Below are positions 1 through 50,664 of a DNA stretch of 64,000 bases, one piece after another. Source of the DNA: Eubacteriales bacterium (GTDB lineage: Bacteria > Bacillota > Clostridia > Oscillospirales > CAG-272); the NCBI GenBank assembly GCA_045653945.1, contig JAZOML010000003.1:7270-71269 (forward strand), in the 5' to 3' direction. Every line of letters starts with the position of its first letter. Within the stretch, counting starts at the first letter, position 1. The position numbers and the translations under genes were made by a program. The notes under the pieces are model-generated. The model had not been told where the DNA came from. It did not search any database and saw nothing but the letters and a program-made list of their open reading frames with translations.

Positions 1-1480
1 CTTTGGGAACGGACTCGGATACGGGCGGAGTATAAACGGGACGGAGCGGCTGAGCAGGTGCAGACTCCGTAACGCTTTCGTACTCATAGTCATCATCCTC
101 GGCTACGTCATCGACGTCCTCTTCCTCGACGTCCTCAACGTTATCATCATATACAGAGGTGTAGACTTGAGCCGCCTCGTCATTTGCCTCACCTTCGTCC
201 ACGTTATCCTCGGGAATTTCGTAATCCTCCGCGCTTTCAACGTGTACTGGGGGAACGGGTGCATAATTTTGCATCGTCGGAGCGCCTTCGGGCGCACGCT
301 CTCTTGTGCGCTCGGACTCATCATCTATACCCTGCGCCTGCTTTTGCATACGCTCCCAAACCTGCTCCGTTGCAGCATCGCCGACAGGCAAAGCCGCGCC
401 AACGTTATCACGTTTTGGCTCCTTCATACTGCGAACAGGATTTGTAAACGGAGAATACGCCTCAGCTTCTCCCGCATCATCGCCGTAAACGATAGGCTCG
501 GCGTTTTGCGCCGCCTTTGGCAGGGTAAAGGGCGAATATGCGTGGTCAAGATTAATCTTCGTGGGAGTCGGAGCAGGCTTTTCCTCGCTACTCTCTGAAT
601 ATATGTCGGTTTTTACCTGAGTCGGCTGATTTAAACCGAGCTTTTCCATAAGATTTTCGGGAACAAACGGCTTTGCCGTTTGCTCTTCCCTATCAAAATT
701 CACCGTTTCTATCGTGTGTCTGCCGTCGCTGACCGAAAACTCACCTGCTCCAATCTCGGTGGTGCTCACGCCGGCGGTAAGCTCCGGATAGGGTGTGGGC
801 TCGGAAGCTCCCAGCATGGTTTCAACTCTTGTCGGTGAAACGTCGGGTTGAGGCAGCGCAGGAGCGCGCCTTTCATTATCCTTTTTAACTTTAGTTTCTT
901 TTTTAGCATTTTTCTTAGGCGCAACAGGCTTTTCTGCAATATGAAAAACAGTTCTCCATATACCAAGCTTTGTTTTTCCAAGCGTCAGGGTGGCTACCAA
1001 AAGCATTGCTATAACACACACCACTGCCGCAAGCGTGGAAGATAGCATAACGGATAGCAAAATACCTATTGAGCCAAAAAGTCCACCGCTCTGTCCAAGC
1101 GTACCGTCTGTCCAGATTTTTGCAAACGTGGTGTCCGTCCCCGACTCGCCAAGCAGGGTAAGAAGCGATGAGCCGAGAACTGTAAGAGATGCGAGCATTA
1201 TGCATTTGTACCGGAGCGTACCCCTCTTTTCAAGGTCGGCAAAGAATATCGCAAGTACAGTAGCTCCAATAAAAAGAACGTGTGCGGAGTATCCAAAAAG
1301 TCCCAAAAATAGCGTCCGCATAGCTCCCGACGCCCCTGCATCGCCGCCAAGCACAAGACAGCTCTCAAGCACCAGAGAAACGGCGAAAATTATGAAGGGC
1401 GCGAGCGCTTTAAGTATAACCTTTACTGTGCTGTTTCCCTTATTTGTATTGCTGCTTCCCATTGCTTTTTTAGTTGCCAT
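1..1480 (-). CDS. ftsK: DNA translocase FtsK/SpoIIIE, N-terminal membrane domain plus acidic/Pro-rich linker (5' part only; gene runs off the left edge)
   Basis: Absent from the ORF track because there is no stop in the window. Manual reverse-strand translation from ATG at 1480 (MATKKAMGSSNTNKGNSTVKVILKALAPFIIFAVSLVLE...) stays open to position 1; codons 1-180 were checked one by one. Several hydrophobic helices are followed by a long low-complexity linker, as in FtsK N-termini. The motor domain is not visible. Confidence 0.65.
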   Translation of the reverse strand, partial: MATKKAMGSSNTNKGNSTVKVILKALAPFIIFAVSLVLESCLVLGGDAGASGAMRTLFLGLFGYSAHVLFIGATVLAIFFADLEKRGTLRYKCIMLASLTVLGSSLLTLLGESGTDTTFAKIWTDGTLGQSGGLFGSIGILLSVMLSSTLAAVVCVIAMLLVATLTLGKTKLGIWRTVFHIAEKPVAPKKNAKKETKVKKDNERRAPALPQPDVSPTRVETMLGASEPTPYPELTAGVSTTEIGAGEFSVSDGRHTIETVNFDREEQTAKPFVPENLMEKLGLNQPTQVKTDIYSESSEEKPAPTPTKINLDHAYSPFTLPKAAQNAEPIVYGDDAGEAEAYSPFTNPVRSMKEPKRDNVGAALPVGDAATEQVWERMQKQAQGIDDESERTRERAPEGAPTMQNYAPVPPVHVESAEDYEIPEDNVDEGEANDEAAQVYTSVYDDNVEDVEEEDVDDVAEDDDYEYESVTESAPAQPLRPVYTPPVSESVPK

Positions 1481-37917: not shown

Positions 37918-38048
37918 ATTTTTTGTTTCCTTTCGGTATAATTCATTACTAAATCATTATACTATATTTGACTAAAAAAGTAAAGAGGTTTTGGCATTTT
38001 TTTGCCGAAATTTTTGAAAAATCAAAGAATACGTCAAAGGAGATTAGT

Positions 38049-39302
38049 ATGAAAAACGACAAAAAAAGCTCCACAAAGGAGAGCAAATCAACACTTATTC
38101 CCAAAAGCAGGATAAAAAGCGAGGACCTTCCTTTTAATAGAGAACTGGCAATAGAGCATCAAGTTCACGGAAATAAAATGACGCACGACGAAGTGGTCGG
38201 TGGCGGTCATACAATCGACGTTTTACAGGGGCAGGGAAGTCAGTTTTCGGATTTTGTATTCGGAAAAAGCGGCTCGCAACCACCCTGCAGTAACAAAGAG
38301 AAGCCCGAAAACGGACATGCAACGCCCAATTATGAGGGTACTGTCGGCGGCGCGGACAAGGTTGGCACAACGCCCAATTACGAGGGCACTGTCGGCGGTG
38401 CGGACAAGGTTGGCGCAACGCCAAATTACGAGGGTACCGTTGGCAAAAAGAGCAGCGACGCAGATAAAAAAAGCAATTCATACGCAATCAAAAGGGAACA
38501 CGCAGAGCCTCTACGCGACAATTTCGGACAAGTACCGCCGGCTGTTAACAGTGTTTACGGAAACACGGATATAAGCAGGCGCACCTACGGAGATTTTAGC
38601 GAAAGCAATTTAAAAAACAGCACCGCTACCGACAACAAAGGCGGCAACAAGGATGAAAAAAACAGCGAAAGCACAGAAAAAAACAAGAAAAAAGACCGCG
38701 CAGTAACGGTAAAAAGCAACAAAAAGCTTATAAAAACCATTGTGATAGCAGGGCAAATCGAGGGACACACTCAGTTACCGCAGGAGCAAAAGGCAACGAA
38801 GTATGAGGAGCTTATCCCACAGCTGATTGAGATAGAGGAAACCGACGAAATCGGCGGACTTTTACTGATTTTGAACACCGTCGGCGGCGACGTCGAAGCA
38901 GGTCTTGCCCTATCCGAGCTTATCGCAGGAATGAAAAAGCCAACCGCTTCCCTTGTGCTCGGCGGTGGGCATTCGATAGGAGTGCCACTCGCAGTTTCGA
39001 CAAAGCGTTCATTTATTGTACCAAGCGCAACTATGACGTTACACCCCGTCCGTGTTACGGGTATGGTTCTCAGCGCTCCGCAAACCTACGTTTATCTTAA
39101 CAATATGCAGGAGCGCATAATAAATTTCGTTTGTTCGCACAGCAGCATAAAGCGGGAGCGTTTCAGTGCCCTTATGCTCGCAAGAGAGGAAATGTCAACA
39201 GATCTCGGTTCGGTTCTCGACGGCAAAAAGGCGGTAGATGAGGGGCTTATAGATACGTTGGGAACACTCAGCGATGCAATGGAGTATCTATCCTCTTTCT
39301 AA
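38049..39302 (+). CDS. ClpP/TepA-like serine protease domain with long disordered N-terminal extension
   Basis: C-terminal part LLILNTVGGDVEAGLALSELIAGMKKPTASLVLGGGHSIGVPLAV...ATMTLHPVR. N-terminal roughly 230 aa is low complexity, with three tandem TPNYEGTVGGADKVG repeats. ATG at 38049 has RBS AAGGAG. Confidence 0.75.
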   Translation: MKNDKKSSTKESKSTLIPKSRIKSEDLPFNRELAIEHQVHGNKMTHDEVVGGGHTIDVLQGQGSQFSDFVFGKSGSQPPCSNKEKPENGHATPNYEGTVGGADKVGTTPNYEGTVGGADKVGATPNYEGTVGKKSSDADKKSNSYAIKREHAEPLRDNFGQVPPAVNSVYGNTDISRRTYGDFSESNLKNSTATDNKGGNKDEKNSESTEKNKKKDRAVTVKSNKKLIKTIVIAGQIEGHTQLPQEQKATKYEELIPQLIEIEETDEIGGLLLILNTVGGDVEAGLALSELIAGMKKPTASLVLGGGHSIGVPLAVSTKRSFIVPSATMTLHPVRVTGMVLSAPQTYVYLNNMQERIINFVCSHSSIKRERFSALMLAREEMSTDLGSVLDGKKAVDEGLIDTLGTLSDAMEYLSSF

Positions 39303-39438
39303 CCGTACTTTTCTTGTAAGAAAAGTACGGTTAGCACCAGCAAGCGAATAATTGATATAGTGTAAATTTAAACTGTATATCACGGCGGCGTAGTAAGAGA
39401 AGTTCTTTTGCCTACTTTTCTTACAAGAAAAGTACGGT
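39303..39438 (+). repeat. full-length mosaic repeat flanked by two core hairpins
   Basis: ccgtacttttcttgtaagaaaagtacgg, then gcgaataattgatatagtgtaaatttaaactgtatatcacggcggcgtagtaagagaagttcttttgc, then ctacttttcttacaagaaaagtacgg. Confidence 0.85.
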
Positions 39439-39453
39439 GGAATATAAAACCGA

Positions 39454-39482
39454 AAAAGCAAGGTTTAAAACCTTGCTTTTTT
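39454..39482 (+). terminator. rho-independent terminator
   Basis: aaaagcaagg-tttaaaa-ccttgctttttt. Confidence 0.65.
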
Positions 39483-39485
39483 ACC

Positions 39486-39514
39486 TTTACAAATGCAAAT
39501 ATTTATGATATAAT
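39486..39514 (+). promoter_or_regulatory. sigmaA promoter of the TIR/LRR operon
   Basis: TTTACA - 17 nt - TATAAT. A leader of about 100 nt follows, containing the inverted repeat gtgtaata...tattacac. Confidence 0.6.
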
Positions 39515-39614
39515 AATAAATAATAAATATCAAAATGTGTAATATATGTTTAAATTCACCGAGTTTAAGATAGAATTCGGATTTAGGTATTACACTTAAA
39601 AAGGAGTAAGCTTT

Positions 39615-40667
39615 ATGTCAACGCCCACACCGTATAGCGGTAGCGAGCCTTTTATATTTCTGAGCTTTTCGGAAAAGGACAGCACTGCCGTATTGCGATT
39701 AATCTCAAAAATGCAAGTCGACGGCTACCGCATCTGGTACGATGACGGCACAAGCCTCGAAGAGAATTATTCTAAAACCGTTGCAGACAAAATAAGCAGC
39801 TGCGAGTTTTTCATCGCAATCTTTACTTCAAGCTTTATTTCCACAGATGCCTGCATTTCTCAGCTTGATATGGCACAGAAGGAAAGAAAAAGCGGCACCG
39901 CAATATTCTTAGAGGAGCTCACCCTCTCGCTGGGTATGAGATTTCGTCTTTTGCAGTTCGACGGCTTTCATAAGTACGCATATACAAACGAAAACGACTT
40001 TTGGGACGAGCTATACGAAAGCGATAATTTCGGATTGTTTAATTTATCCGATGCGCCCAAAAGACCTACCCCCGAAACCTCAAGTCCCAACAAAGATTTT
40101 TTAATAGAGAACGGAGTGCTTTCGGCTTATTCGGGCGATGACGAATACGTCGTCATACCGGAGGGCGTACATAAAATAGACCGTATGGCTTTTGCGTTCA
40201 ACAATAGCATAAAGACCGTCTTTGTACCAAGCTCAATAACGTTTATTGACGAAATGGCGTTTTATCAATGCACAAGCCTTGTTGAGGTTTTCCTGCCCGA
40301 CACTATAAACCATATCGGCGAAAAAGCCTTTGCGGGCTGCACGTCCTTTGCTCGTTTTTTCGCTCCCGAGAAAGTTAAAAAAATACTGCCCGGCACTTTT
40401 TGGGGCTGCACCGCGCTTGTAAGGGTAATTATTAGCAACAGTGTTACAGAGATAGGCGCCCAAGCATTCAAGCTTTGCGAAAATCTTAACGAGGTAGTTA
40501 TCGGTAGCGGACTCACAAGTCTTGCCGCCGACGCCTTTGACGACTGCAAACGTCCGCTTACCATACGTTACAAGGGTACGCGGGAAGCGTGGTATAAAAT
40601 CATAGAAGCTCTCGGCTGGAAAAAGGGCGAGGGAAAATATATAGTTCACTATAACCAAAAGGGCTAA
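39615..40667 (+). CDS. TIR-domain / BspA-type LRR protein (TIR catalytic Glu replaced by Gln)
   Basis: N-terminus PYSGSEPFIFLSFSEKD...GYRIWYDDG...FFIAIFTSSFISTDACISQLDMA (Q83, codon 39861-39863). About six LRRs of the form IPxxVxxIxxxAFxxCxxL follow. Cap YKGTREAWYKIIEALGWKKGEGKYIVHY. RBS AAGGAG. No signal peptide. Confidence 0.8.
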   Translation: MSTPTPYSGSEPFIFLSFSEKDSTAVLRLISKMQVDGYRIWYDDGTSLEENYSKTVADKISSCEFFIAIFTSSFISTDACISQLDMAQKERKSGTAIFLEELTLSLGMRFRLLQFDGFHKYAYTNENDFWDELYESDNFGLFNLSDAPKRPTPETSSPNKDFLIENGVLSAYSGDDEYVVIPEGVHKIDRMAFAFNNSIKTVFVPSSITFIDEMAFYQCTSLVEVFLPDTINHIGEKAFAGCTSFARFFAPEKVKKILPGTFWGCTALVRVIISNSVTEIGAQAFKLCENLNEVVIGSGLTSLAADAFDDCKRPLTIRYKGTREAWYKIIEALGWKKGEGKYIVHYNQKG

Positions 40668-40672
40668 AAATT

Positions 40673-41581
40673 ATGGACAAGATGAATGATTTTGTAATAG
40701 AAGACGGAATGCTGACCGAATACATAGGAGATGGCGGGCGTGTCATTATACCCGACGGTGTCAGAAGTATAGGCGACGAGGCGTTTGCCGCTTGCGAGCC
40801 TATTACGGAAATTTTAATACCAAACACCGTTGTTTCAATAGGAAATAAGGCGTTTGAGGGCTGCGAGGGTATTACCAAAATAACTCTGCCCGACAATCTT
40901 AAATTTATCGGCAAATTTGCATTTGTCGGATGCACCTCTCTTGAAGAAATTAACATTTCGGAAAGCAACTCCGCCTATAAATCGCTTTTCGGAGTGCTCT
41001 ATTCAAAGGACGGAAGAACACTTATTTGCCACCCCGCAGCAAAAAAGGGCGGAACGTTCTTTGTGCCCCATAACGTACAGCGCATAGACCTCGGCGCATT
41101 TTGGAAATGCAAAAGCCTTGAATGTATTATGCTACCGTTCGGCTTAAAGGAAATTTGCTATGGCGCATTTAACGAGTGCGTATCGCTTTCCGTTATTTCA
41201 ATACCAAGCACCGTAACGACGCTTGGCGGACTTGCCTTCGGCTCCTGCAAGGCGCTGACCTCGATAACCCTGCCAAAGAGCATAGTTGAAATATCAAACT
41301 TCACCTTTTCGTACTGTACCGGACTTAAAAGCTTCAAGGTACATAACGGAATAAAGAAAATCGGCAACTATGCGTTTTTTAACTGCAAAAATCTTACCGA
41401 GATATATATTGGCAGCTCCGTCAATTCACTAGGCGAAAGCGCACTTTCCTATTGCAACAGTCCGCTTACCGTAAAATACGCAGGCTCAAAGCCGACCTTT
41501 TATAAGCTCATTGAAAAGCAGGGCTGGAAAAAGGGCGAGGGTAAATACATAGTATATTACAACCAGGAAGAGCCTACATAA
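40673..41581 (+). CDS. BspA-type LRR protein, no signal peptide
   Basis: MDKMNDFVIEDGMLTEYIGDGGRVIIPDGVRSIGDEAFAAC... About nine repeats. Cap YAGSKPTFYKLIEKQGWKKGEGKYIVYY. Starts 5 nt after the upstream stop. Confidence 0.8.
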   Translation: MDKMNDFVIEDGMLTEYIGDGGRVIIPDGVRSIGDEAFAACEPITEILIPNTVVSIGNKAFEGCEGITKITLPDNLKFIGKFAFVGCTSLEEINISESNSAYKSLFGVLYSKDGRTLICHPAAKKGGTFFVPHNVQRIDLGAFWKCKSLECIMLPFGLKEICYGAFNECVSLSVISIPSTVTTLGGLAFGSCKALTSITLPKSIVEISNFTFSYCTGLKSFKVHNGIKKIGNYAFFNCKNLTEIYIGSSVNSLGESALSYCNSPLTVKYAGSKPTFYKLIEKQGWKKGEGKYIVYYNQEEPT

Positions 41582-41601
41582 AAGAAAGCGAAATACCGAA
41601 A

Positions 41602-42396
41602 ATGAACGAGCTACACGATTTTAATTTCGAGGACGAGGCGATTTGCGGATACACCGGCAAGTCAAACGACGTCGTTATCCCCGACGGAATAGAGCATATA
41701 AGACACACGGCGTTCAGCCATTACGAAAGACTGACCTCTCTTACTGTTCCAAGCAGCGTCAAAAAAATAGGCGATCTTGCATTTTCGGGCTGTCGAGGAC
41801 TTAAAAAAATAACCTTAAGCGAGGGACTTGAGGAAATCGGCTACGGCGCCTTCCGTGAGTGTACAGAGATAACGGAAATCGTTATACCGAGCACAGTAAA
41901 GAAAATAGGGCGCGAAGCGTTTGCCGCTTGTTATAGCCTGACCTCTATCACACTTCCCCCCGACCTTACCGAGCTTAAAGAGGGTGCGTTTTCGGGCTGC
42001 CATAGCCTGCCCGCCATTGACCTGCCGAAGGGAAGTACCAAAATAGGCGCAAGTACATTTGCCTCTTGCAAGGCACTGAGCGAGCTGAAAATACCCGACG
42101 GTGTTACCGAAATAGAGGAACGAGCCTTTTGCAACTGTCCGGGACTTACTGTATTTGAAATTCCCGATGGCGTTGTAAAGCTCGGCAAAAGAGCATTTTG
42201 GAAATGCGAAAATCTACATACGCTAATCATCGGACGGGGACTTAAGAGCATCGGGCAGGGCGCATTTGAGGATTGCCCCTCACTCAAGGTAATAAAATAC
42301 GCATCCTCAAAGCGAGATTTTGAAAAAATCAAAAAGCCAACCACGTGGAAAGATGACCTCAAAGGCTACCAAGTAGATTTTAACTGTAAGAACTGA
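41602..42396 (+). CDS. BspA-type LRR protein, no signal peptide
   Basis: HDFNFEDEAICGYTGKSNDVVIPDGIEHIRHTAFSHYERLTSLTVPSSVKKIGDLAFSGC... Cap YASSKRDFEKIKKPTTWKDDLKGYQVDF. Confidence 0.8.
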   Translation: MNELHDFNFEDEAICGYTGKSNDVVIPDGIEHIRHTAFSHYERLTSLTVPSSVKKIGDLAFSGCRGLKKITLSEGLEEIGYGAFRECTEITEIVIPSTVKKIGREAFAACYSLTSITLPPDLTELKEGAFSGCHSLPAIDLPKGSTKIGASTFASCKALSELKIPDGVTEIEERAFCNCPGLTVFEIPDGVVKLGKRAFWKCENLHTLIIGRGLKSIGQGAFEDCPSLKVIKYASSKRDFEKIKKPTTWKDDLKGYQVDFNCKN

Positions 42397-42479
42397 ATAA
42401 AAGGAGCGTTTCGTGTATTTTACACACCTTATACGGATAAGAGTCATCCGCACAACCGCAACTAAAAAGTGAGATAAAA

Positions 42480-44102
42480 ATGATAAATTTAAAAGACTTC
42501 GTAATCGAAGGGGACACCCTCGTATCATACAAAGGCAGAGAAAAAAACCTTAAAATCCCTTTTCTTGTAACTAAAATAGCGGAAAAGGCGTTTTTCGGCA
42601 ACGACTTTATCAAAACCCTTGCCCTGCCAATAAGCGTTACAAGTATTGCGCCTCGTGCGTTTTTCGGCTGCACGTCGCTTGAGAGCATATACCTACCACC
42701 CTCACTTGAGAAAATAGGCGACGAGGCGTTTAAAAAATGCTCCTCGCTTAAATACGTGCTTTTCGGCGGCAACGAGAATGAGTGGGAAAGGGTGGAAAAG
42801 GGTAACCTTTGGTGCACCCCAACGGGCGAATTTTGTATGAAATTCAACTGTCCTTCGAGTATACAAAACAACCCAAAGGACTTTATAATTGAGGACACCA
42901 CGCTCAACACCTACACAGGCACCGACGCACACGTAATAGTCCCCGACGGCATAACGGTTATCGGAGATTGGGCGTTTGATGAATCGCATAACCTACAAAC
43001 AGTTTACCTTCCTGCAAGCATTACGGAAATAGGAATATACGCCTTTGCACACTGCCCCGACTTTGCCGTAATTTATTTTGGCGGCAGCAACGAGCAGTGG
43101 GAGAATATAATTACGGGGATATTTTGGGATTTCGGCGTAGAGGATTACACCGTAGTTTGCGACTGTAAGCCGAATACTGCCGAGGACTTCGTCATCGAGA
43201 ACGGAGAGCTGCTCAAATACGTAGGCGACAGTCGGGCAGTCAGCATCCCCTACGGCGTAAATAAGGTCGCCGACGGTGCGTTTGCGGAATCAGACTTTGT
43301 TACGTCGCTTATCTTCCCCGACACCGTCGATACAATAACGGCAGGCTCACTTGAAGGACTCCGTAACCTCAGAGTCGTTCAAACGGGCGACGGCGTTACC
43401 GAAATACTTCCGAATACCTTTTCTATGTACCCCGAAATTGAGGCGGCTATCCTCGGTAAAAGCGTACACACCGTTGAAAGCTTTGCGTTTTGGTGCTGCA
43501 CAAAGCTAAAAAAGGTCATCTTTTCCGAGGGTGTTTACCACCTTCACAACGGAGCATTTTCAGGTTGCACAGCGCTTAAATGGGTAACGCTTCCGAGCAC
43601 CCTTGAGGAAATAGGCGACCAAGCATTTTTCGGTTGTACTGCGCTTGAACGGGTAGACTTTGACTGCGGAGTCAGACGTATCGGCTGGAGCGCCTTTGAC
43701 GGCTGCACCTCGCTTAAATGGATAGACCTGCCCGAAACGCTCAACCAAATCGGTTGGCACGCATTCAGCGGATGCACCTCTCTTGAAAAGGTAATACTTC
43801 ACGACAGACTTTACATAATCGGACGAGGCGCATTTGAAGAGTGCGCACTGACGGAAATAGATATTCCCGAAAAAACGCATACGATAGGAGATAAAGCGTT
43901 TTTCGGATGCCGAAAGCTTAAAACCGTAAATATCGGCAGTGATTTGCACACCCTCGGCAAGCACGCATTTGAGGGCTGCGACCACCCCGTTAACATAACC
44001 TTTAACGGCACCCGCTTCAGATGGAGCTGTATAATCCGCGAGCTTGACTGGAAAAAGGGCGAGGGAAAATACATCCTGCGCTACCTGAAAAAAGAAGACT
44101 AA
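42480..44102 (+). CDS. BspA-type LRR protein with three LRR-plus-cap modules
   Basis: Three units each begin (K/E)DF(V/I)IE...L..Y.G. They end in the caps GGNENEWERVEKGNLW, GGSNEQWENIITGIFW and NGTRFRWSCIIRELDWKKGEGKYILRY. Confidence 0.8.
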   Translation: MINLKDFVIEGDTLVSYKGREKNLKIPFLVTKIAEKAFFGNDFIKTLALPISVTSIAPRAFFGCTSLESIYLPPSLEKIGDEAFKKCSSLKYVLFGGNENEWERVEKGNLWCTPTGEFCMKFNCPSSIQNNPKDFIIEDTTLNTYTGTDAHVIVPDGITVIGDWAFDESHNLQTVYLPASITEIGIYAFAHCPDFAVIYFGGSNEQWENIITGIFWDFGVEDYTVVCDCKPNTAEDFVIENGELLKYVGDSRAVSIPYGVNKVADGAFAESDFVTSLIFPDTVDTITAGSLEGLRNLRVVQTGDGVTEILPNTFSMYPEIEAAILGKSVHTVESFAFWCCTKLKKVIFSEGVYHLHNGAFSGCTALKWVTLPSTLEEIGDQAFFGCTALERVDFDCGVRRIGWSAFDGCTSLKWIDLPETLNQIGWHAFSGCTSLEKVILHDRLYIIGRGAFEECALTEIDIPEKTHTIGDKAFFGCRKLKTVNIGSDLHTLGKHAFEGCDHPVNITFNGTRFRWSCIIRELDWKKGEGKYILRYLKKED

Positions 44103-44115
44103 AGGAGATTTGAAT

Positions 44116-45963
44116 ATGGAAATTCCAACCCCATATAAAGGAAACGAGCCATTTATCTTCGTCAGCTACGCGCATAAGGACGCGCCCACCGTTTACCCAA
44201 TCCTTGAAAAGCTACTGGGGGACGGCTACCGCATCTGGTACGACGAGGGCATTCCGCTTTCAAGCATTTGGGAGGACGTAATCCTTGAAAAGCTCCACAC
44301 CTGCGAATACTTTATTTTTTTCGTATCGGAAGCATCCGTCAAATCGGAGTGGTGTCAAAGGGAGCTACAAATCGCTCACGAAAAATCAAAGAAAATAGCC
44401 CCTATATACTTGGAGGACGCAGCTCTTACGGATATTATGCACAGCATTTTGCATAAGCTCCAAGCCCTTTTGAAATACAAATACGATGACGAAAGTAACT
44501 TCTTTACCAACCTCTACGACCAGGAGGACATAAAGCAATTCAGACCTCAGGATTTCGATATCGTCGGAGGCGTGCTTACGAAATACAACGGCAGGGAGGA
44601 AAACATCGTAATCCCCGAGCTTGTAAAACAAATAGGGCAAAAGGCTTTTTACAGTAACAGGCAGATAAAAAGCGTACACGTACCCTTTGGCGTAAAAAAA
44701 ATAGAGAGCCTTGCCTTTTTTGATTGCAAAAGCTTAAACGTTATATCCTTTACCGACGGCATAACCGAAATCGGCGCTCAGGCATTTTCGTATTGTGAGA
44801 AGCTGGAAAGCCTTGACTTTCCGGACAGTATCGAGAGCATAGGCTACGGGGCATTCAGTAATTGCACCTCGCTTTGCTCGGTATCCTTGCCAAGCAAAAT
44901 AAATGTGATACCGCAATGGGCTTTTGCCGACTGCCGCTCTCTTACCAATATAGCTATACCAAGCTCGGTTACACAAATAGACAGCTTCGCCTTCAATAAT
45001 TGCTACTCACTTGAAAGCGTTGATATTCCCGTAAGCATAACGGAAATAGGCGGCTCTGCCTTCAAAAGCTGCTCGTCGCTTTCCTTAATCAATTTCGGCG
45101 GCACAAAAAAACAGTGGGATGCCATTGAAAAGTATGAAACGTGGGATGCGGACACCCCAAGCTACACCGTAAAAATCAATAAAAACGGAGCATTTAAAAT
45201 CTTTGACGGTACGTTAAAGGGATATGACGGAAACGAAAAAAACGTAACCGTACCGAGCAAGGTCAAAAAAATAGGCAACGGAGCATTTTCGGATAACGAG
45301 CATATAGAAGCTATAACCCTGCCGCGCTCCATTACCGAAATAGGCGACGGCGCATTTTCGACGTGCAGAGAACTTAAAAGCATATGCTTACCGAACAGGC
45401 TCTCAAAAATCGGAGAAAACGCATTTTGCTCCTGTACAAGCCTTGAAAGCATAACTATTCCCAAAAAAATCAAAAAAATACCGTGGGCGGCCTTCAGAAG
45501 CTGTCATAACCTACGGCTTGTCGAACTTCCGCCAAATCTCACCGAAATAGGAAAATACGCATTTTGCTACTGCGAGAAGCTTGAAAGCATCGTATTACCA
45601 AACAAAATAAAGAAAATAGAGATGAGCGCATTTGCAAGCTGTGGACTTTCAAGTATAAGCCTGCCAACAGGCTTAACCGAAATAAGCACTATGACCTTTG
45701 CGAGCAACCCATTTGAAGCAATTAAAATACCGAGCGGCGTTACCGAAATAGGTAGCTTTGCGTTTTTGTGCTGCACAAAGCTTTCAAGCATCACACTCCC
45801 CCTCTCGCTCAAAAAAATAGGCGACGGCGCATTTAAACTTTGCTCTGCCCTTTCGGATATTTACTTTTGCGGCACGAAAGAGCAGTGGGAGGCAATAGAA
45901 AAGGAGGAAGGCTGGGACAGTGAAGCAGGCAGCTACACCGTCCACTTTGAATGCAAGGAGTAA
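44116..45963 (+). CDS. TIR-domain / BspA-type LRR protein (two LRR modules)
   Basis: PYKGNEPFIFVSYAHKD...GYRIWYDEG...YFIFFVSEASVKSEWCQRELQIA (Glu kept). Caps GGTKKQWDAIEKYETW and CGTKEQWEAIEKEEGW. ATG at 44116 has RBS AAGGAG; the track TTG is at 44110. Confidence 0.8.
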   Translation: MEIPTPYKGNEPFIFVSYAHKDAPTVYPILEKLLGDGYRIWYDEGIPLSSIWEDVILEKLHTCEYFIFFVSEASVKSEWCQRELQIAHEKSKKIAPIYLEDAALTDIMHSILHKLQALLKYKYDDESNFFTNLYDQEDIKQFRPQDFDIVGGVLTKYNGREENIVIPELVKQIGQKAFYSNRQIKSVHVPFGVKKIESLAFFDCKSLNVISFTDGITEIGAQAFSYCEKLESLDFPDSIESIGYGAFSNCTSLCSVSLPSKINVIPQWAFADCRSLTNIAIPSSVTQIDSFAFNNCYSLESVDIPVSITEIGGSAFKSCSSLSLINFGGTKKQWDAIEKYETWDADTPSYTVKINKNGAFKIFDGTLKGYDGNEKNVTVPSKVKKIGNGAFSDNEHIEAITLPRSITEIGDGAFSTCRELKSICLPNRLSKIGENAFCSCTSLESITIPKKIKKIPWAAFRSCHNLRLVELPPNLTEIGKYAFCYCEKLESIVLPNKIKKIEMSAFASCGLSSISLPTGLTEISTMTFASNPFEAIKIPSGVTEIGSFAFLCCTKLSSITLPLSLKKIGDGAFKLCSALSDIYFCGTKEQWEAIEKEEGWDSEAGSYTVHFECKE

Positions 45964-45966
45964 AAA

Positions 45967-46476
45967 ATGGACTTTAAAATCAGCTACGGAGTTCTTAATA
46001 TGTATACGGGCGAGGGCGGTAATGTTACCGTCCCCGACGGCGTAACGAAAATAGAGGCAGGAGCGTTTATCGGACACAAGACCTTGACGGGAGTTTACCT
46101 GCCCGATAGCGTTACGGAAATTGGCGGAAAAGCATTTGCGAGCTGCTCCGCGCTTGAGTTTGCCGAGCTTGGACAAGGAATAGAGTTTGTTGGCAAATGG
46201 GCATTTGCATACTGCTCATCACTCAAAAAGCTCTCCCTGCCCGAGGGCGTAAAACGAATCGGCTGGGGCGCGTTTTCAAGCTGCACGTCGCTTAAAAGCC
46301 TAACCCTGCCCTCTACACTCACCCAGATAGACTGGTGCATAATTGAATTTTGCAAGTCGCTAAAGGAAATCAATTACCGTGGTACTCGCGAGCAGTGGGA
46401 AGCCATCGAAAAGGACGAGGACTGGGATACAGATGCAAGCGAGTACACCATAAACTTTAACTTCAAGGGAAAATAA
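45967..46476 (+). CDS. single-module BspA-type LRR protein
   Basis: MDFKISYGVLNMYTGEGGNVTVPDGVTKIEAGAFIGHKTL... Cap YRGTREQWEAIEKDEDWDTDASEYTINFNFKGK. Starts 3 nt after the upstream stop. Confidence 0.8.
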   Translation: MDFKISYGVLNMYTGEGGNVTVPDGVTKIEAGAFIGHKTLTGVYLPDSVTEIGGKAFASCSALEFAELGQGIEFVGKWAFAYCSSLKKLSLPEGVKRIGWGAFSSCTSLKSLTLPSTLTQIDWCIIEFCKSLKEINYRGTREQWEAIEKDEDWDTDASEYTINFNFKGK

Positions 46477-46495
46477 CTTCAAAGGAGAATATACG

Positions 46496-48199
46496 ATGAC
46501 AAAGCCTGTTCCATACGAGGGAAACGAGCCGTTTATTTTCATAAGCTACTCACACAAGGATAGAGAAGAGGTATTCAAGGTTCTCTTTAACCTGCAAGAA
46601 AACGGATATCGTTTTTGGTACGACGAGGGCATTGACTCCGGCACTGAGTCGAACGAGGTTATAGCCACCACTATCGAAAAGTGCGACTATTTCATTGCGT
46701 TTATTTCCGCGAACTCACTTGTATCCAACACCTGCAGGCTCGAGCTTAACTTTGCACACAATTTGGATAAAAATATACTGATTATTTACCTTGATAACGC
46801 AACGCTGCCAATCGTTATGAGGATGCGATTCGGACGACTGCGGGCAATACATAAATATAAATATGAAAACGAGGATGACTTTTACAAAAGGCTTTATAAA
46901 TCCGATGGTATAAAAATTTTTAAAAACGTAACTCAACCCGACTGCAATCCCGATGATTTTGAAATAGTTGACGGCGAGCTTGTTAAATATGAAGGAAATA
47001 GTGCAAATATTTTTATCCCGGACAGTGTAACGAGCATAGGCGAGTGTGCTTTCCTTGATTGCGACTCACTTACAAGCATAACTATCCCGAGTAGTGTAAC
47101 TAGTATTGGCTATCGTGCGTTTGAGGATTGCACATCGCTTACAAACGTAACTATCCCCGATAGTGTAACGAGCATAGACTCTTATGCGTTTGAGGATTGC
47201 ACATCACTTACAAGCATAACTATCCCGGTTAGTGTAACGAGCATAGGCAATTATGCGTTCTCAGGTTGCACCTCACTTACAAGCATAACTATCCCGGGTA
47301 GTGTAACGAGCATAGGATTTTCTGCGTTCTCGCGTTGCTCCTCGCTTACAAGCATAACTATTCCCGATAGTGTAACTAGGATTTGCTATCATGTGTTCAA
47401 GGATTGCACATCACTTACAAGCATAAAAGTTGATGAAAACAACACTGTCTATAAATCCGAAAACGGAGTTTTGTATACCAAAGACGGCAAAGCTTTAATT
47501 TATTATCCTGTCGGTAAAACCGACACAAGCTTTGTTATTCCCGATAATGTAGAGAGCATTGGCTATTCTGCGTTCTTTGGTTGCGACTCACTTACAAGAG
47601 TAACTATTCCCGATAGTGTAGAGAGCATAGGCTCTTTTGCGTTTGAGGATTGCACATCGCTTACAAGCATAAACGTTGATGCAAACAACACTGTCTATAA
47701 ATCCGAAAACGGCGTTTTGTATACCAAAGACGGCAAAGCTTTAATTTATTATCCTGTCGGTAAAACCGACACAAGCTTTATTATTCCCGACAGTGTAGAG
47801 AGCATTGGCTATTCTACGTTCAAGGATTGTGAATCACTTACAAGCATAAACGTTGATGTAAATAACACCGTCTATAAATCCGAAAACGGAGTTTTGTACA
47901 CCAAAGACGGTAAAACTTTAATCCAATTTCCCGCCGGTAAAACCGACACAAGCTTTGTTATTCCAAACGGCATAACCGGTATTGAGGATTTTGCCTTCAG
48001 TGATAGTGCACTTGAAAGCATAACTATTCCAAGCAGCGTAAACAGTATTGGCGAAACGGCGTTCGATACTTGCTTTTTCCTTAATACTATTAATTTTTGC
48101 GGCACACGTAAACAGTGGAACGCCATTGAAAAGGGCGAGGAATGGGACTACACCATCTCCGCTAACTACAAAATAAACTTCAACTACAAGGGAAAATAA
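46496..48199 (+). CDS. TIR-domain / BspA-type LRR protein with highly repetitive LRR region
   Basis: PYEGNEPFIFISYSHKD...GYRFWYDEG...YFIAFISANSLVSNTCRLELNFA. Then 23-aa repeats SLTSITIPxSVTSIGxxAFxxCT, three YKSENGVLYTKDGK units, and cap CGTRKQWNAIEKGEEW...NFNYKGK. Confidence 0.8.
   Translation: MTKPVPYEGNEPFIFISYSHKDREEVFKVLFNLQENGYRFWYDEGIDSGTESNEVIATTIEKCDYFIAFISANSLVSNTCRLELNFAHNLDKNILIIYLDNATLPIVMRMRFGRLRAIHKYKYENEDDFYKRLYKSDGIKIFKNVTQPDCNPDDFEIVDGELVKYEGNSANIFIPDSVTSIGECAFLDCDSLTSITIPSSVTSIGYRAFEDCTSLTNVTIPDSVTSIDSYAFEDCTSLTSITIPVSVTSIGNYAFSGCTSLTSITIPGSVTSIGFSAFSRCSSLTSITIPDSVTRICYHVFKDCTSLTSIKVDENNTVYKSENGVLYTKDGKALIYYPVGKTDTSFVIPDNVESIGYSAFFGCDSLTRVTIPDSVESIGSFAFEDCTSLTSINVDANNTVYKSENGVLYTKDGKALIYYPVGKTDTSFIIPDSVESIGYSTFKDCESLTSINVDVNNTVYKSENGVLYTKDGKTLIQFPAGKTDTSFVIPNGITGIEDFAFSDSALESITIPSSVNSIGETAFDTCFFLNTINFCGTRKQWNAIEKGEEWDYTISANYKINFNYKGK
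47066..47410 (+). repeat. five tandem 69-bp (23-codon) repeats inside the TIR-LRR gene
   Basis: Units start at 47066, 47135, 47204, 47273 and 47342. Each reads tc(a/g)cttacaa(g/a)c(a/g)taactat(c/t)cc....gtgtaac.ag.at.... Confidence 0.85.
47429..47975 (+). repeat. three near-identical ~120-130-bp repeats inside the TIR-LRR gene
   Basis: gttgatg.aaa.aacac.gtctataaatccgaaaacgg.gttttgta.accaaagacgg.aaa.ctttaat... begins at 47429, 47675 and 47852. Confidence 0.85.
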
Positions 48200-48218
48200 C
48201 TTCAAAGGAGAAAAGGCT

Positions 48219-50312
48219 ATGGCAATTTTACGTCCGTACAAGGGCGATAAGCCGTTCATTTTCATAAGCTATGCACATAAGGACAAGGGCAGTGTGCATA
48301 AAATTATCAAAAATATGCTTGATTGCGGTTACCGAGTTTGGTACGACGAGGGCATTGACCCCGGCACCGAGTGGGACGACACCATTGCCGAGCACGTCGA
48401 AAACTGTGGCTATTTTATTGCGTTCATTTCAAAAAATTATCTTGCCTCGGACAACTGTATGGACGAGCTTGACTACGCACGCGACTCAAACAGAAAGCGA
48501 CTGCTCGTTTATCTTGAAAACGTATCCCTGCCGGGCGGTATGAAAATGCGACTCAACCGCCTTCAGGCTATACATAAGTACAAATATGAAAGCGAGGACG
48601 ACTTTTTCGAGAAGCTTTATACGGCTGACCAAATCGGGAATTTCAAGGAAGAAGTAGATTTGCCGCCTATAAAAGAAAAGCCCACCGCAAAAGTCAAATC
48701 AGCGACAAAGAAAACGCCTTCGCCCAAAAAAGCCGAGCAAAAGGAAATAGTTATCACCTATCCCAAGGTTAACATAGCACCGCCTGTCATAACACCCACA
48801 GAGGATTTTGACTGGGAGCTTCTTTTCCCGACAAGCAAGGAAAAGACCACTTTCGCTTTCTCGGACTACAAAAAACCACCCACCAGCCTTCTTAAGCAGG
48901 ACGATTTTATGCCCGACGCACCGCTTGACGAAATACATAAAATAATAAGTGTCCTGCAAGAGTCCTTTGAAGCATTTAAAATTAAAATAAAGGACGTAAG
49001 CTGCACCGTTGCCCCTTCCTTTTTACGCTTCGAGGTAACCCCCGAGGCGGGTGTTTCGCTCAAGAAAATACTAGATTTACAGTTTGATTTAAGCGCTGCG
49101 CTAGGCTTACACGGACTTGCCACAGGAAACGTTCGCATTGCCATAATACCCGGCAAACGTGCAGTAGGAATAGAGGTTCCGTTAAAATCCGCCGCTAACG
49201 TTCCGCTTCGCGGTCTTTTGGAAGACCCAAAATTTAAATCGGCAAATAGCCCCGTAACCGTTTGTCTTGGCAGAGATTCCGCGTGCGAGCCGGTATTTGC
49301 CGACATAAACGAAATGCCTCATCTTCTTATCGGCGGTCAAACAAGGTCGGGTAAATCTACTCTTATCAACTGTATGATAACCAGCCTTATTTATAAGTCC
49401 TCCCCCGACGACGTTCGCCTGCTGCTTATCGACCCGAAAATGGTAGAATACCGTATGTATAATCTTCTGCCGCACCTTATTATGCCTGTTGTTGACAACG
49501 CTCAAAGGGCGGTGTCGGCGCTTAAATGGGTAGTTGACGAAATGGACCGCCGCTATAAGCTGCTTGAAAAGGCTCAGGCAAGAAACCGCAAGGAATACTA
49601 CGAAATCGGAGATAACAACCCCGATTTTGAGCCAATGCCCCATTTGGTGGTAATAATAGACGAGCTTGCCGACCTTATGCTTCAAGCAAAGAATCCCATC
49701 GAGGAATATATTAACCGCATAGCCACCTTGGCAAGAGCGTGCGGGATTCACCTCATAATCTGCACTCAAAGACCGACGGTTGACGTTATTACGGGCGTTA
49801 TCAAAGCGAATATCCCCTCAAAAATCGCTTTCAAGGTAGCTTCGCACGTCGACTCAAGAACCGTTCTCGGCGTACCCGGAGCTGAAAATCTTATAGGGCA
49901 CGGCGATATGCTTTATATCGGCCCGACAGGAAACGAGATGAGAATTCAGGGCGCAAACGTTGACGTAAACGAAATTAAGAGCATCGTTAAATACGTTATA
50001 GAAAATAACGGCAGCGCAAAGTTCGATCCCGACGTATTTAAAGCCGTACAAAAATCGGAAACCGTTTCCCGCCTTGGCGGAGATGCCGACTTTGAGATGC
50101 TTTGCAGCGCAACAGAGCTTTTCCTTGAAATGGGTATAGCCAGTTTAAGCCTTATGCAAAGACACCTGCGCATCGGATTCAACAAAGCCGCAAACCTATT
50201 TGATAAGCTCGTAGAAATAGGCTTTATATCACAAAGAAACGGCTCAAAGCCTGCCACAGTGCTCATAACAAAAGAAAAGTATCTTGAATGGAAAAAAAGA
50301 TATACGGAATAA
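48219..50312 (+). CDS. TIR-domain fused to a complete soluble FtsK/SpoIIIE DNA-translocase motor (alpha, beta, gamma domains), no membrane anchor
   Basis: - aa 1-135 form a TIR domain: PYKGDKPFIFISYAHKD...GYRVWYDEG...YFIAFISKNYLASDNCMDELDYA, with E83 at 48465-48467.
- A Lys/Pro linker follows.
- Motor motifs: Walker A HLLIGGQTRSGKST (about 49335-49358), Walker B HLVVIIDELADL, ICTQRPTVDVITGVIKANIPSKIAFKVAS..DSRTVLG..GAENLIGHGDMLY.
- Gamma winged helix: SLMQRHLRIGFNKAANLFDKLVEIGFIS. Confidence 0.85.
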   Translation: MAILRPYKGDKPFIFISYAHKDKGSVHKIIKNMLDCGYRVWYDEGIDPGTEWDDTIAEHVENCGYFIAFISKNYLASDNCMDELDYARDSNRKRLLVYLENVSLPGGMKMRLNRLQAIHKYKYESEDDFFEKLYTADQIGNFKEEVDLPPIKEKPTAKVKSATKKTPSPKKAEQKEIVITYPKVNIAPPVITPTEDFDWELLFPTSKEKTTFAFSDYKKPPTSLLKQDDFMPDAPLDEIHKIISVLQESFEAFKIKIKDVSCTVAPSFLRFEVTPEAGVSLKKILDLQFDLSAALGLHGLATGNVRIAIIPGKRAVGIEVPLKSAANVPLRGLLEDPKFKSANSPVTVCLGRDSACEPVFADINEMPHLLIGGQTRSGKSTLINCMITSLIYKSSPDDVRLLLIDPKMVEYRMYNLLPHLIMPVVDNAQRAVSALKWVVDEMDRRYKLLEKAQARNRKEYYEIGDNNPDFEPMPHLVVIIDELADLMLQAKNPIEEYINRIATLARACGIHLIICTQRPTVDVITGVIKANIPSKIAFKVASHVDSRTVLGVPGAENLIGHGDMLYIGPTGNEMRIQGANVDVNEIKSIVKYVIENNGSAKFDPDVFKAVQKSETVSRLGGDADFEMLCSATELFLEMGIASLSLMQRHLRIGFNKAANLFDKLVEIGFISQRNGSKPATVLITKEKYLEWKKRYTE

Positions 50313-50314
50313 GT

Positions 50315-50346
50315 AAAAAAGACGGGCTAAAAACCCGTCTTTTTTA
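50315..50346. terminator. strong bidirectional terminator ending the TIR/LRR operon
   Basis: aaaaaagacgggc-taaaaa-cccgtctttttt. Confidence 0.75.
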
Positions 50347-50664
50347 TAGCAAATCCTTGCAAACCGTCAATTTAATAAGCAACCCCGTATCATCGTCCTG
50401 CGCTGACTTGTTGCGACGGATAGCTCCACATTTCTTACACCTCGACACAATAATATAACCCTTCTTGGGATCAGGTAGGCTCTGAACGGGAACAAGCAAC
50501 CCACCGCAATCAGAGGCTCTGTCGCCAGGATTTACGTCAACGTGAAGCGAGTGAAGACAAAAGGGACAGTGATTGCGAGAGGTGTAACCAAGCGGCGACA
50601 CATCGCTACCACAATTTGCACATATAAAGCCACTATCGTTTTTTTGAAATCGCTTATCTTCCAT
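50344..50664 (-). CDS. RNHCP-domain zinc-ribbon protein
   Basis: FICANCGSDVSPLGYTSRNHCPFCLHSLHVD...CGG...CKKCG. Confidence 0.75.
   Translation of the reverse strand: MEDKRFQKNDSGFICANCGSDVSPLGYTSRNHCPFCLHSLHVDVNPGDRASDCGGLLVPVQSLPDPKKGYIIVSRCKKCGAIRRNKSAQDDDTGLLIKLTVCKDLL

Follow-up and report, generated by a model that had tools for sequence, protein, structure and literature searches.

A TIR domain at the membrane-anchor position of an FtsK-type motor protein in an Eubacteriales bacterium

Results

A TIR domain joined to a complete FtsK motor

We analyzed, by computational means throughout, a 64,000-nt stretch of contig JAZOML010000003.1 from an Eubacteriales bacterium, a gut member of the Clostridia (the whole stretch is referred to here as the window), and we focus on a gene that joins a TIR domain to an FtsK motor. 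This gene, termed TIR-FtsK, lies on the forward strand at 48219–50312 and is the last of eight co-oriented genes (39615–50312) separated by intergenic gaps of 3 to 83 bp. According to the list of open reading frames (ORFs) and Pfam, the other seven are BspA-type leucine-rich repeat (LRR_5) genes on the same strand (39615–48199), and three of them—at 39615–40667, 44110–45963 and 46496–48199—also start with a TIR domain. TIR-FtsK itself has an ATG start and, with the stop codon included in the interval given, encodes 697 residues in which the translation reveals four Pfam domains: TIR_2 (residues 14–133, E = 2.2e-22), FtsK_alpha (220–321, E = 2.1e-14), FtsK_SpoIIIE (330–520, E = 6.9e-55) and FtsK_gamma (626–684, E = 1.7e-16).

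The TIR domain, delimited by Pfam, a structure model and Foldseek matches, covers residues 1–145 (48219–48653); it contains the segment DEGIDPGTEWD (48345–48377) and the motif NCMDELDYA (residues 79–87; 48453–48479), within which the codon at 48465–48467 specifies the putative catalytic glutamate E83. A disordered, Lys/Pro-rich linker follows (residues 146–219; 48654–48875). It is recognizable by composition, with 15 Lys and 10 Pro in residues 136–219, by a family mean pairwise identity of 25%, and by the full-length model, whose mean predicted local distance difference test (pLDDT) score of 89.4 drops below 50 over residues 147–197—indicating predicted disorder. The alpha domain (residues 220–325; 48876–49193) and the RecA-type beta motor (residues 326–590; 49194–49988) are supported by Pfam and by alignment to solved FtsK structures, and the beta motor bears Walker A (GQTRSGKS, residues 373–380; 49335–49358), Walker B (VVIIDELADL, residues 477–486; 49647–49676), the TQRP-region motif CTQRPTVDVITG (residues 515–526; 49761–49796), VDSRTVLG (544–551) and GHGDMLY (560–566). 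The gamma winged helix, assigned by Pfam and motif comparison, closes the protein (residues 626–697; 50094–50309), and its recognition helix LMQRHLRIGFNKAANLFDKL (residues 645–664; 50151–50210) has Asn in place of the canonical Arg/Lys. Residues 200–697 align from alpha to gamma, large gaps being absent, with E. coli FtsK (2IUS, E = 2.2e-95), and likewise from alpha to gamma with Pseudomonas aeruginosa FtsK (2IUT, E = 3.6e-92). An earlier reading made from the letters alone (the sequence-only reading) had reported E83, Walker A, Walker B, the QRP/DSR/GDML motifs, the gamma helix, a Lys/Pro-rich linker and an intact motor; we found all of these where it had placed them, and none of the motor motifs is degenerate in this protein.

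The position taken by the four-transmembrane (4TM) anchor in FtsK/SpoIIIE proteins is occupied here by the TIR domain (residues 1–145). No transmembrane helix was found in TIR-FtsK, and a hydrophobic 19-residue window is absent across the whole protein, in agreement with its earlier description as an extra, soluble FtsK paralogue. A conjugation or type VII secretion ATPase was considered and rejected—matches to the NCBIfam models EssC, EccC and TraB fell far under their cut-offs and covered the P-loop domain only—and TIR-FtsK is neither a conjugation nor a sporulation gene.

An AlphaFold model of residues 1–145, built with 54 relatives, reached a pLDDT of 93.3. When this model was compared with the PDB using Foldseek, the SPARTA TIR-APAZ protein ranked at the top (template modeling score 0.72–0.78), followed by SARM1, the plant protein RPP1 and AbTir, with a probability of 1.00; the top matches were all genuine TIRs, the NAD-cleaving ones ranking first. 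By sequence, the nearest solved TIR is that of the CRISPR-associated protein Cat1 (E = 2.2e-07), in which SDWCWDELEQA aligns on SDNCMDELDYA of the window protein. Pfam, the model and Foldseek concur that the N-terminal 135 residues adopt a TIR fold. Moreover, this domain is the same module as in the upstream TIR-LRR genes, as the sequence-only reading had noticed, with identities of 54% (gene 46496), 46% (gene 44110) and 36% (gene 39615). E83 is invariant in 13 of 13 TIR-FtsK proteins, in all 54 TIR relatives and in 55/55 TIR ORFs from named genomes, and its position is presumably that of the catalytic glutamate of SARM1 and plant TIRs. The TIR of TIR-FtsK is hence catalytically plausible, and NADase activity is predicted.

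Rarity and distribution

A word-indexed search of 5.8 billion proteins returned 12 other clusters that combine TIR and FtsK at 36–55% identity, exclusively from metagenomes or metagenome-assembled genomes and none with a protein name. When 1.84 billion representatives were searched exhaustively with a profile, 11 proteins had a match that begins in the TIR; Pfam confirmed TIR-plus-FtsK in three multi-stretch matches of this search, some of which bear tandem motors. Overall, the architecture accounts for about a dozen 50%-identity clusters in the 1.84 billion representatives. In GTDB, scanned with one genome per species (185,579 species genomes), the TIR subfamily occurs at 184 loci of gut and rumen Clostridia and the FtsK part at only five. 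The search for TIR-only homologues yielded no protein longer than 251 residues, and the architecture counts rest on the GTDB scan and an ORF census. The architecture is kept across families of Clostridia. No description of a TIR fused to FtsK or FtsZ was found in the literature searched, where the one paper naming both TIR and FtsK/HerA concerns TIR-Orc/Cdc6 fusions. The tabulation that the sequence-only reading had called for returns a rare, unannotated architecture.

In four relatives (P0222, P0223, P0225 and P0226) two FtsK motor domains occur per chain, possibly as a gene-fusion artefact of assembly; one of these has an N-terminal DJ-1/PfpI domain replacing the TIR, and one has a second TIR behind gamma. 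We also considered a mobile-element origin and rejected it: the TIR subfamily gave one match, at 29.5% identity, in 50,697 phage records, nothing over 36% identity in plasmid records and nothing in IMG/VR viral contigs, and the GC content of the locus is ordinary (0.41–0.50; window mean, 0.44).

A constrained TIR and a fast-changing motor

Two contigs, L003 and L001, are syntenic with the window and were used for a closer comparison; the variability described here rests on these three genomes. Flanking DNA is about 96–97% identical to the window in L003 and about 81–83% in L001. The housekeeping proteins follow suit (SerS 99.8%, Jag 100% and MnmE 96.9% in L003; 82–97% in L001), and so do the LRR-only genes (95–97% in L003, 78–80% in L001). 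TIR-FtsK, in contrast, is only 49% identical to its counterpart in L003 and 55% to that in L001, and the TIR-bearing genes of the LRR cluster, at 42–47% identity to those of L001, also lie much under the LRR-only genes. Two TIR-LRR genes, 44110 and 46496, are missing from L003. When the identical Jag protein was used to look for further genomes, only the L003 contig and two short fragments came up.

The breakpoints are visible at the nucleotide level. With blastn, high identity to L003 extends over 400 nt from the start of window gene 46496, and these 400 nt align to the start of the L003 TIR-FtsK gene; past this point, identity drops to 65–73% or the sequences cannot be aligned, and it resumes at window position 50098. 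The L003 TIR-FtsK thus bears the TIR that the window has on gene 46496, and comparison with both contigs delimits a segment at 48700–50098 (forward strand; linker, alpha, beta and the start of gamma) that has been swapped for a divergent allele. Between the window protein and that of L001 (P0002), identity is 94% over the TIR, 42% over alpha, 56% over beta and 53% over gamma, whereas P0002 and P0003 have similar motors (beta, 80%) and dissimilar TIRs (64%). Because these per-domain identities mismatch, the three genomes represent three TIR/motor cassette combinations. On this evidence, TIR and motor have been shuffled independently, and the locus turns over at strain level within a species-level lineage.

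Selection differs between the two halves of the protein. For the TIR, the ratio of nonsynonymous to synonymous substitution rates (dN/dS) between the window and L001 is 0.05 at dS = 0.68, as compared to 0.05–0.06 for dnaA, dnaN and jag and 0.16–0.17 for the LRR-only genes; for the motor, dN/dS is 0.22 between the L001 and L003 orthologues and 0.37 between L007 and L008, two relatives with a dead Walker A. The TIR is as constrained as DnaA, and the motor is less so. Across the family, mean pairwise identity falls from 64% in the TIR to 50% in beta, 42% in gamma and 32% in alpha. When beta domains were placed in a neighbour-joining tree, the branches leading to the TIR-linked motors were much longer than those of canonical FtsKs, and because of these long branches the tree does not settle whether the fusion had a single origin.

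Motor motifs have decayed in part of the family. Among the 13 aligned relatives, four (P0010, P0011, P0012 and P0014) read G....GMS and ...ISEL, i.e., with the Walker A lysine changed to methionine and the Walker B aspartate to serine, and the TQRP arginine has been lost in P0006, P0007, P0008 and P0010–P0014. All the relatives with decayed motor motifs keep the TIR. Since Walker A/B residues or the TQRP arginine have been lost in these relatives, ATP-driven translocation is not a conserved core of the family. In the gamma domain, which reads KOPS/SRS-type motifs in FtsK/SpoIIIE translocases and whose recognition positions presumably correspond to E. coli N1296/R1300/E1303, the window protein has Asn, and four relatives have Ser or Ala, at the position held by Arg or Lys in 105/105 canonical Clostridia FtsKs.

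Fast motor evolution and motif loss in some relatives would also be expected of a decaying ftsK duplicate with no function of its own. This explanation is very improbable: the ORF is intact over 697 residues with all motifs, dN/dS stays well below 1 for the TIR and for the motor alike, and the architecture has persisted across families of Clostridia.

The same TIR subfamily on other partners

Members of this TIR subfamily, up to 68% identical, occur on many small proteins. Among the 55 TIR ORFs from named genomes, the partner is Sel1 in six, MORN in five, LRR_5 in three, FtsK in three, a full FtsZ core in one and part of DnaA in one, with TPR repeats as a further partner. Complete genes of 217–237 residues combine the TIR with the FtsK gamma domain alone (P0122, P0125, P0174, P0176, P0180 and L092:5453–6112), in ordinary chromosomal surroundings. 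About nine clusters carry a TIR on FtsZ (L036:4767–6308, P0367–P0375 and L094:8001–9410); these proteins lack the FtsZ C-terminal linker and tether peptide, and several have altered GTP-binding loops. In two assemblies, one TIR-FtsZ gene lies directly 3' of a gene for NADAR, a domain of NAD/ADP-ribose metabolism. Finally, L052:9992–11191 encodes a TIR followed by part of the DnaA ATPase domain (III) and the DNA-binding domain IV; a pattern search for the DnaA-type Walker A (G..G.GK[ST]H) in this protein gave no match. Across these many C-terminal modules, the TIR appears to behave as a portable effector.

These fusions bring forward a guard or decoy role, in which the FtsK part would mimic or co-assemble with the native FtsK, phage factors that attack or hijack FtsK would disturb the mimic or recruit it and so free TIR activity, and TIR-FtsZ and TIR-DnaA would be sister guards. 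That one TIR subfamily is found on FtsK, on the FtsZ core and on DnaA domains argues for it, as do the absence of the tether peptide from TIR-FtsZ, paralleling that of the 4TM anchor from TIR-FtsK, and the decay of NTPase motifs, next to an intact TIR, in some members of each family. Furthermore, in L007 and L008 TIR-FtsK has two FtsK paralogues directly at its side, a canonical 4TM one and a truncated one, and the literature has entertained the possibility that FtsK-family motors form mixed oligomers (PMC4744071). Co-assembly would nonetheless have to be supposed, and the motors are about 50% identical to canonical FtsKs and lie on long branches, which weakens the case for mixed rings. Most fusions of the subfamily, besides, involve repeat domains and not cell-cycle proteins, and we know of no phage inhibitor of FtsK for these hosts. 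We consider a guard or decoy role unlikely, yet the strongest of the alternatives to a DNA-triggered defence switch, the reading that we prefer.

The L007 and L008 loci (L007:4498–11992 and L008:4509–11995) share one gene order: the canonical 4TM FtsK, an Mbeg1-like gene, a 353-residue alpha-beta FtsK fragment and then TIR-FtsK. In the fragment, Walker A is intact; in the adjoining TIR-FtsK, its lysine is replaced by methionine.

Operon and genomic setting

The only strong promoter-like site, at 39486–39514 on the forward strand, lies ahead of the first TIR-LRR gene; a consensus scan gave 11/12 matches with a TG extension. Because the gaps between the genes are so short, the seven LRR genes and TIR-FtsK probably form one operon. 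No signal peptide or membrane segment was found in the seven LRR proteins, and the whole set is therefore taken to be cytoplasmic. In gene 39615, Gln stands at the catalytic-Glu position (ACISQLDMA).

An operon of this kind could encode a single multi-protein TIR system, in which the LRR proteins would act as sensors for a protein ligand, the TIRs would form a heterotypic complex, and the FtsK motor would strip or pump invader DNA or else tether the complex to the nucleoid. The eight closely spaced genes behind one strong promoter-like site are consistent with such a system, as are the four paralogous TIRs with their 36–54% identity, the exchange of TIRs between TIR-LRR and TIR-FtsK genes, and the pairing of TIR-FtsK with a TIR-MORN gene in L005. 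We nevertheless regard it as improbable: in L006, L010 and L013 TIR-FtsK has no TIR-LRR or other TIR neighbour, L003 keeps TIR-FtsK despite its two missing TIR-LRR genes, and motors with a dead ATPase cannot pump DNA.

On the 3' side of TIR-FtsK, the opposite strand carries mnmE, jag and yidC, beyond which the syntenic L001 and L003 contigs continue with rnpA and then dnaA and dnaN; with these neighbours, the locus adjoins the replication origin. In a distant clade (L010:8200–11965 and L013:8200–11668), TIR-FtsK lies directly 3' of mnmG (gidA), likewise origin-proximal, a position that echoes the mnmE-adjacent one in the window; the L013 protein lacks the gamma domain.

The left edge of the window (1–1480, reverse strand, start at 1480) holds the beginning of a gene that leaves the window and probably encodes a canonical FtsK. 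Its translation shows several hydrophobic helices and then a long acidic linker, and BLASTP matches it to the N-terminal 20–200 residues of 51 canonical FtsKs. The sequence-only reading had placed the canonical, membrane-anchored ftsK here. The membrane part agrees with this placement; Pfam, in turn, calls no FtsK_4TM in this ORF, and the motor would lie beyond the window. A separate membrane-anchored FtsK, of which only the non-motor part is visible in the window, is therefore probable.

With an anchored FtsK probably present elsewhere in the genome, TIR-FtsK might be a housekeeping soluble translocase similar to SftA of Bacillus subtilis, an FtsK homologue without a transmembrane domain that provides a precedent (PMC4744071). 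TIR-FtsK would then assist in chromosome partitioning, with its TIR only a localisation or protein-binding module. The soluble alpha-beta-gamma architecture with intact motor motifs would suit such a role, and so would the position near the origin here and beside mnmG in L010 and L013. On balance, this explanation is slightly less probable still than a multi-protein system: the distribution is extremely patchy (5/185,579 species genomes), TIR-FtsK is 49% identical between genomes whose flanks are some 96–97% identical, ATPase motifs have been lost in relatives, the gamma position held by Arg or Lys in canonical FtsKs is Asn here, and an invariant Glu at the catalytic position would be needless in a pure adaptor.

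Other features around the operon vary as well. Upstream, a ClpP-like gene (37968–39302, forward strand; 444 residues) has a long N-terminal extension with tandem TPNYEGTVGGADKVG repeats; in L001 and L003, too, it stands ahead of the TIR-LRR operon, and its dN/dS against L001 is 0.15. Between this gene and the first TIR-LRR gene lies an indel (window 39324–39613 versus L003:4425–4972), at which the window has 290 bp with the promoter-like site, and L003 and L001 have a 127-residue LRR_5 gene. Downstream, an RNHCP-domain gene convergent with TIR-FtsK (50344–50664, reverse strand) is 92% identical to that of L001 and 78% to that of L003—a mosaic, L003 being the closer genome elsewhere.

Comparison with known systems

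The sequence-only reading had likened TIR-FtsK to the SIR2-HerA anti-phage system. As an analogy between a ring ATPase and an NADase, the parallel stands; as a statement on the motor it does not, since Pfam and PADLOC place the motor in the FtsK clade and not with HerA. SIR2-HerA and DUF4297-HerA couple an effector that consumes NAD to a ring-forming ATPase from the FtsK-HerA superfamily, and ring assembly activates the NADase there, as is proposed here. In at least one such system, the Sir2 NADase is switched on by a HerA hexamer that needs no ATPase activity for this (PMC11514289), a situation paralleled by the TIR-FtsK relatives with a dead Walker A. The differences are threefold: two genes there versus one polypeptide here, a SIR2 effector versus a TIR, and a HerA-clade ATPase versus an FtsK-clade motor with alpha and gamma. 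On TIR-FtsK, Pfam DUF87 scores 20.3 bits (cut-off, 23.2), and PADLOC HerA gives 1.1e-06 with no significant stretch, the best matches all being FtsK. No SIR2 or DUF4297 effector gene was found among the neighbours of TIR-FtsK.

SPARTA, upon binding foreign nucleic acid, uses its TIR to deplete NAD (PMC13276650). Its TIR is the closest in structure to that of TIR-FtsK, with sequence identity of only about 20%, and the order of events—nucleic-acid binding, oligomerisation and TIR NADase activity (PMC13276650)—is the one proposed here. In contrast to SPARTA, TIR-FtsK has no Argonaute, APAZ domain or guide RNA, and the sensor would be the FtsK motor. Along the same lines, Cat1 and TIR-FtsK have the C.DEL motif in common, whereas no CARF domain was found in TIR-FtsK; PADLOC gives weak matches to ThsB models (1.3e-05), and neither the operon nor its flanks contain a partner of the ThsA type known from Thoeris, which combines SIR2 or Macro with SLOG.

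Among FtsK proteins, SftA of B. subtilis is a second family member with no transmembrane domain, a retained gamma domain and an anchored paralogue (PMC4744071). TIR-FtsK resembles it as a soluble alpha-beta-gamma FtsK beside an anchored paralogue, here partly visible. SftA, however, serves partitioning, is conserved and has a canonical gamma, while TIR-FtsK is rare and strain-variable with an altered gamma helix. To our knowledge, SftA has no TIR, and two soluble Bacillales FtsKs (P0067 and P0068) align with TIR-FtsK over the motor only, i.e., over 67% of the query. Canonical FtsK/SpoIIIE proteins align end to end through alpha, beta and gamma (E about 1e-95) and likewise have a proline-rich linker before the motor; they differ in that the TIR replaces the 4TM anchor and the TIR-FtsK motor evolves faster. 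By analogy, TIR-FtsK can be set beside SIR2-HerA and SPARTA, and it is a member of neither.

Discussion

We propose that TIR-FtsK is a cytoplasmic conflict protein of immune type, in which the TIR would be the effector and the DNA-binding, ring-forming FtsK part the sensor. We put the probability of this reading at roughly 45%. A conserved TIR with an invariant Glu, a fast-changing, recombining C-terminal module, a strain-variable locus and a patchy distribution together form the pattern expected of an immune or conflict gene and not that of a partitioning factor, and allelic replacement between near-identical genomes, the pairing of a conserved TIR with a variable motor and the tandem TIR paralogues point in the same direction. 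As a working model, the TIR would be silent in the monomer, with alpha, beta and gamma acting both as the sensor and as an assembly platform. On binding double-stranded DNA, the motor module would close into an FtsK-type hexameric ring, so that six TIRs on flexible linkers of about 80 residues would reach a high local concentration and TIR-TIR contacts could then build the active sites. NAD would be consumed, and the infected or invaded cell would stop growing. Which DNA acts as the trigger would be set by the fast-changing alpha, beta and gamma parts.

We infer three components of this model, i.e., the NADase activity, DNA-driven ring assembly as the switch, and defence as the outcome. Several observations weigh against it. 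The neighbourhood consists of housekeeping, origin-adjacent genes and is not a classical defence island, and in other clades the neighbours of TIR-FtsK are metabolic genes. PADLOC recognized no known system at the locus, where it reported domain-level matches to SspH, mad8 and ThsB only. The relatives with a dead Walker A show that translocation is dispensable in the family, and the TIR-FtsZ and TIR-DnaA fusions hint at a link to the cell cycle over DNA sensing as such. The evidence for variability comes from three genomes, and the conservation of the TIR far exceeds the usual level for immune effectors. Taken together, it is reasonable to regard the mechanism offered by the sequence-only reading—DNA-dependent ring assembly that clusters the TIR domains—as the most economical one, with the qualification that ATP hydrolysis and translocation are not essential to the family. 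For TIR-FtsK, a role in defence, as a switch triggered by DNA, is more likely than one in cell division.

Should this mechanism hold, TIR-FtsK would convert ring assembly on DNA into NAD destruction within a single chain, and such a system would be easily dissected with two point mutants (E83Q and one in the lysine of Walker A). TIR effectors with swappable sensors are an established theme of bacterial immunity; an FtsK-clade motor as the sensor is undescribed in the literature searched. The family also carries a warning for annotation, as 'DNA translocase FtsK' matches in Clostridia may hide other biology. Beyond the single gene, the fusion pattern raises the testable idea that the replication and division machinery is guarded by effector-tagged mimics. 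Gut and rumen Clostridia might, though we consider this doubtful, possess an 'integrated-decoy' family in which a conserved TIR is placed on stripped-down paralogues of the cell's own cell-cycle machines—an anchorless FtsK, a tether-less FtsZ, a DnaA fragment or gamma alone—that no longer have their tethers and, in many cases, no longer act as NTPases. Such mimics would co-assemble with or imitate the real machines, and phage attack on these would trip NAD destruction. If true, bacteria would here have a counterpart to the integrated decoys known from plant immune receptors.

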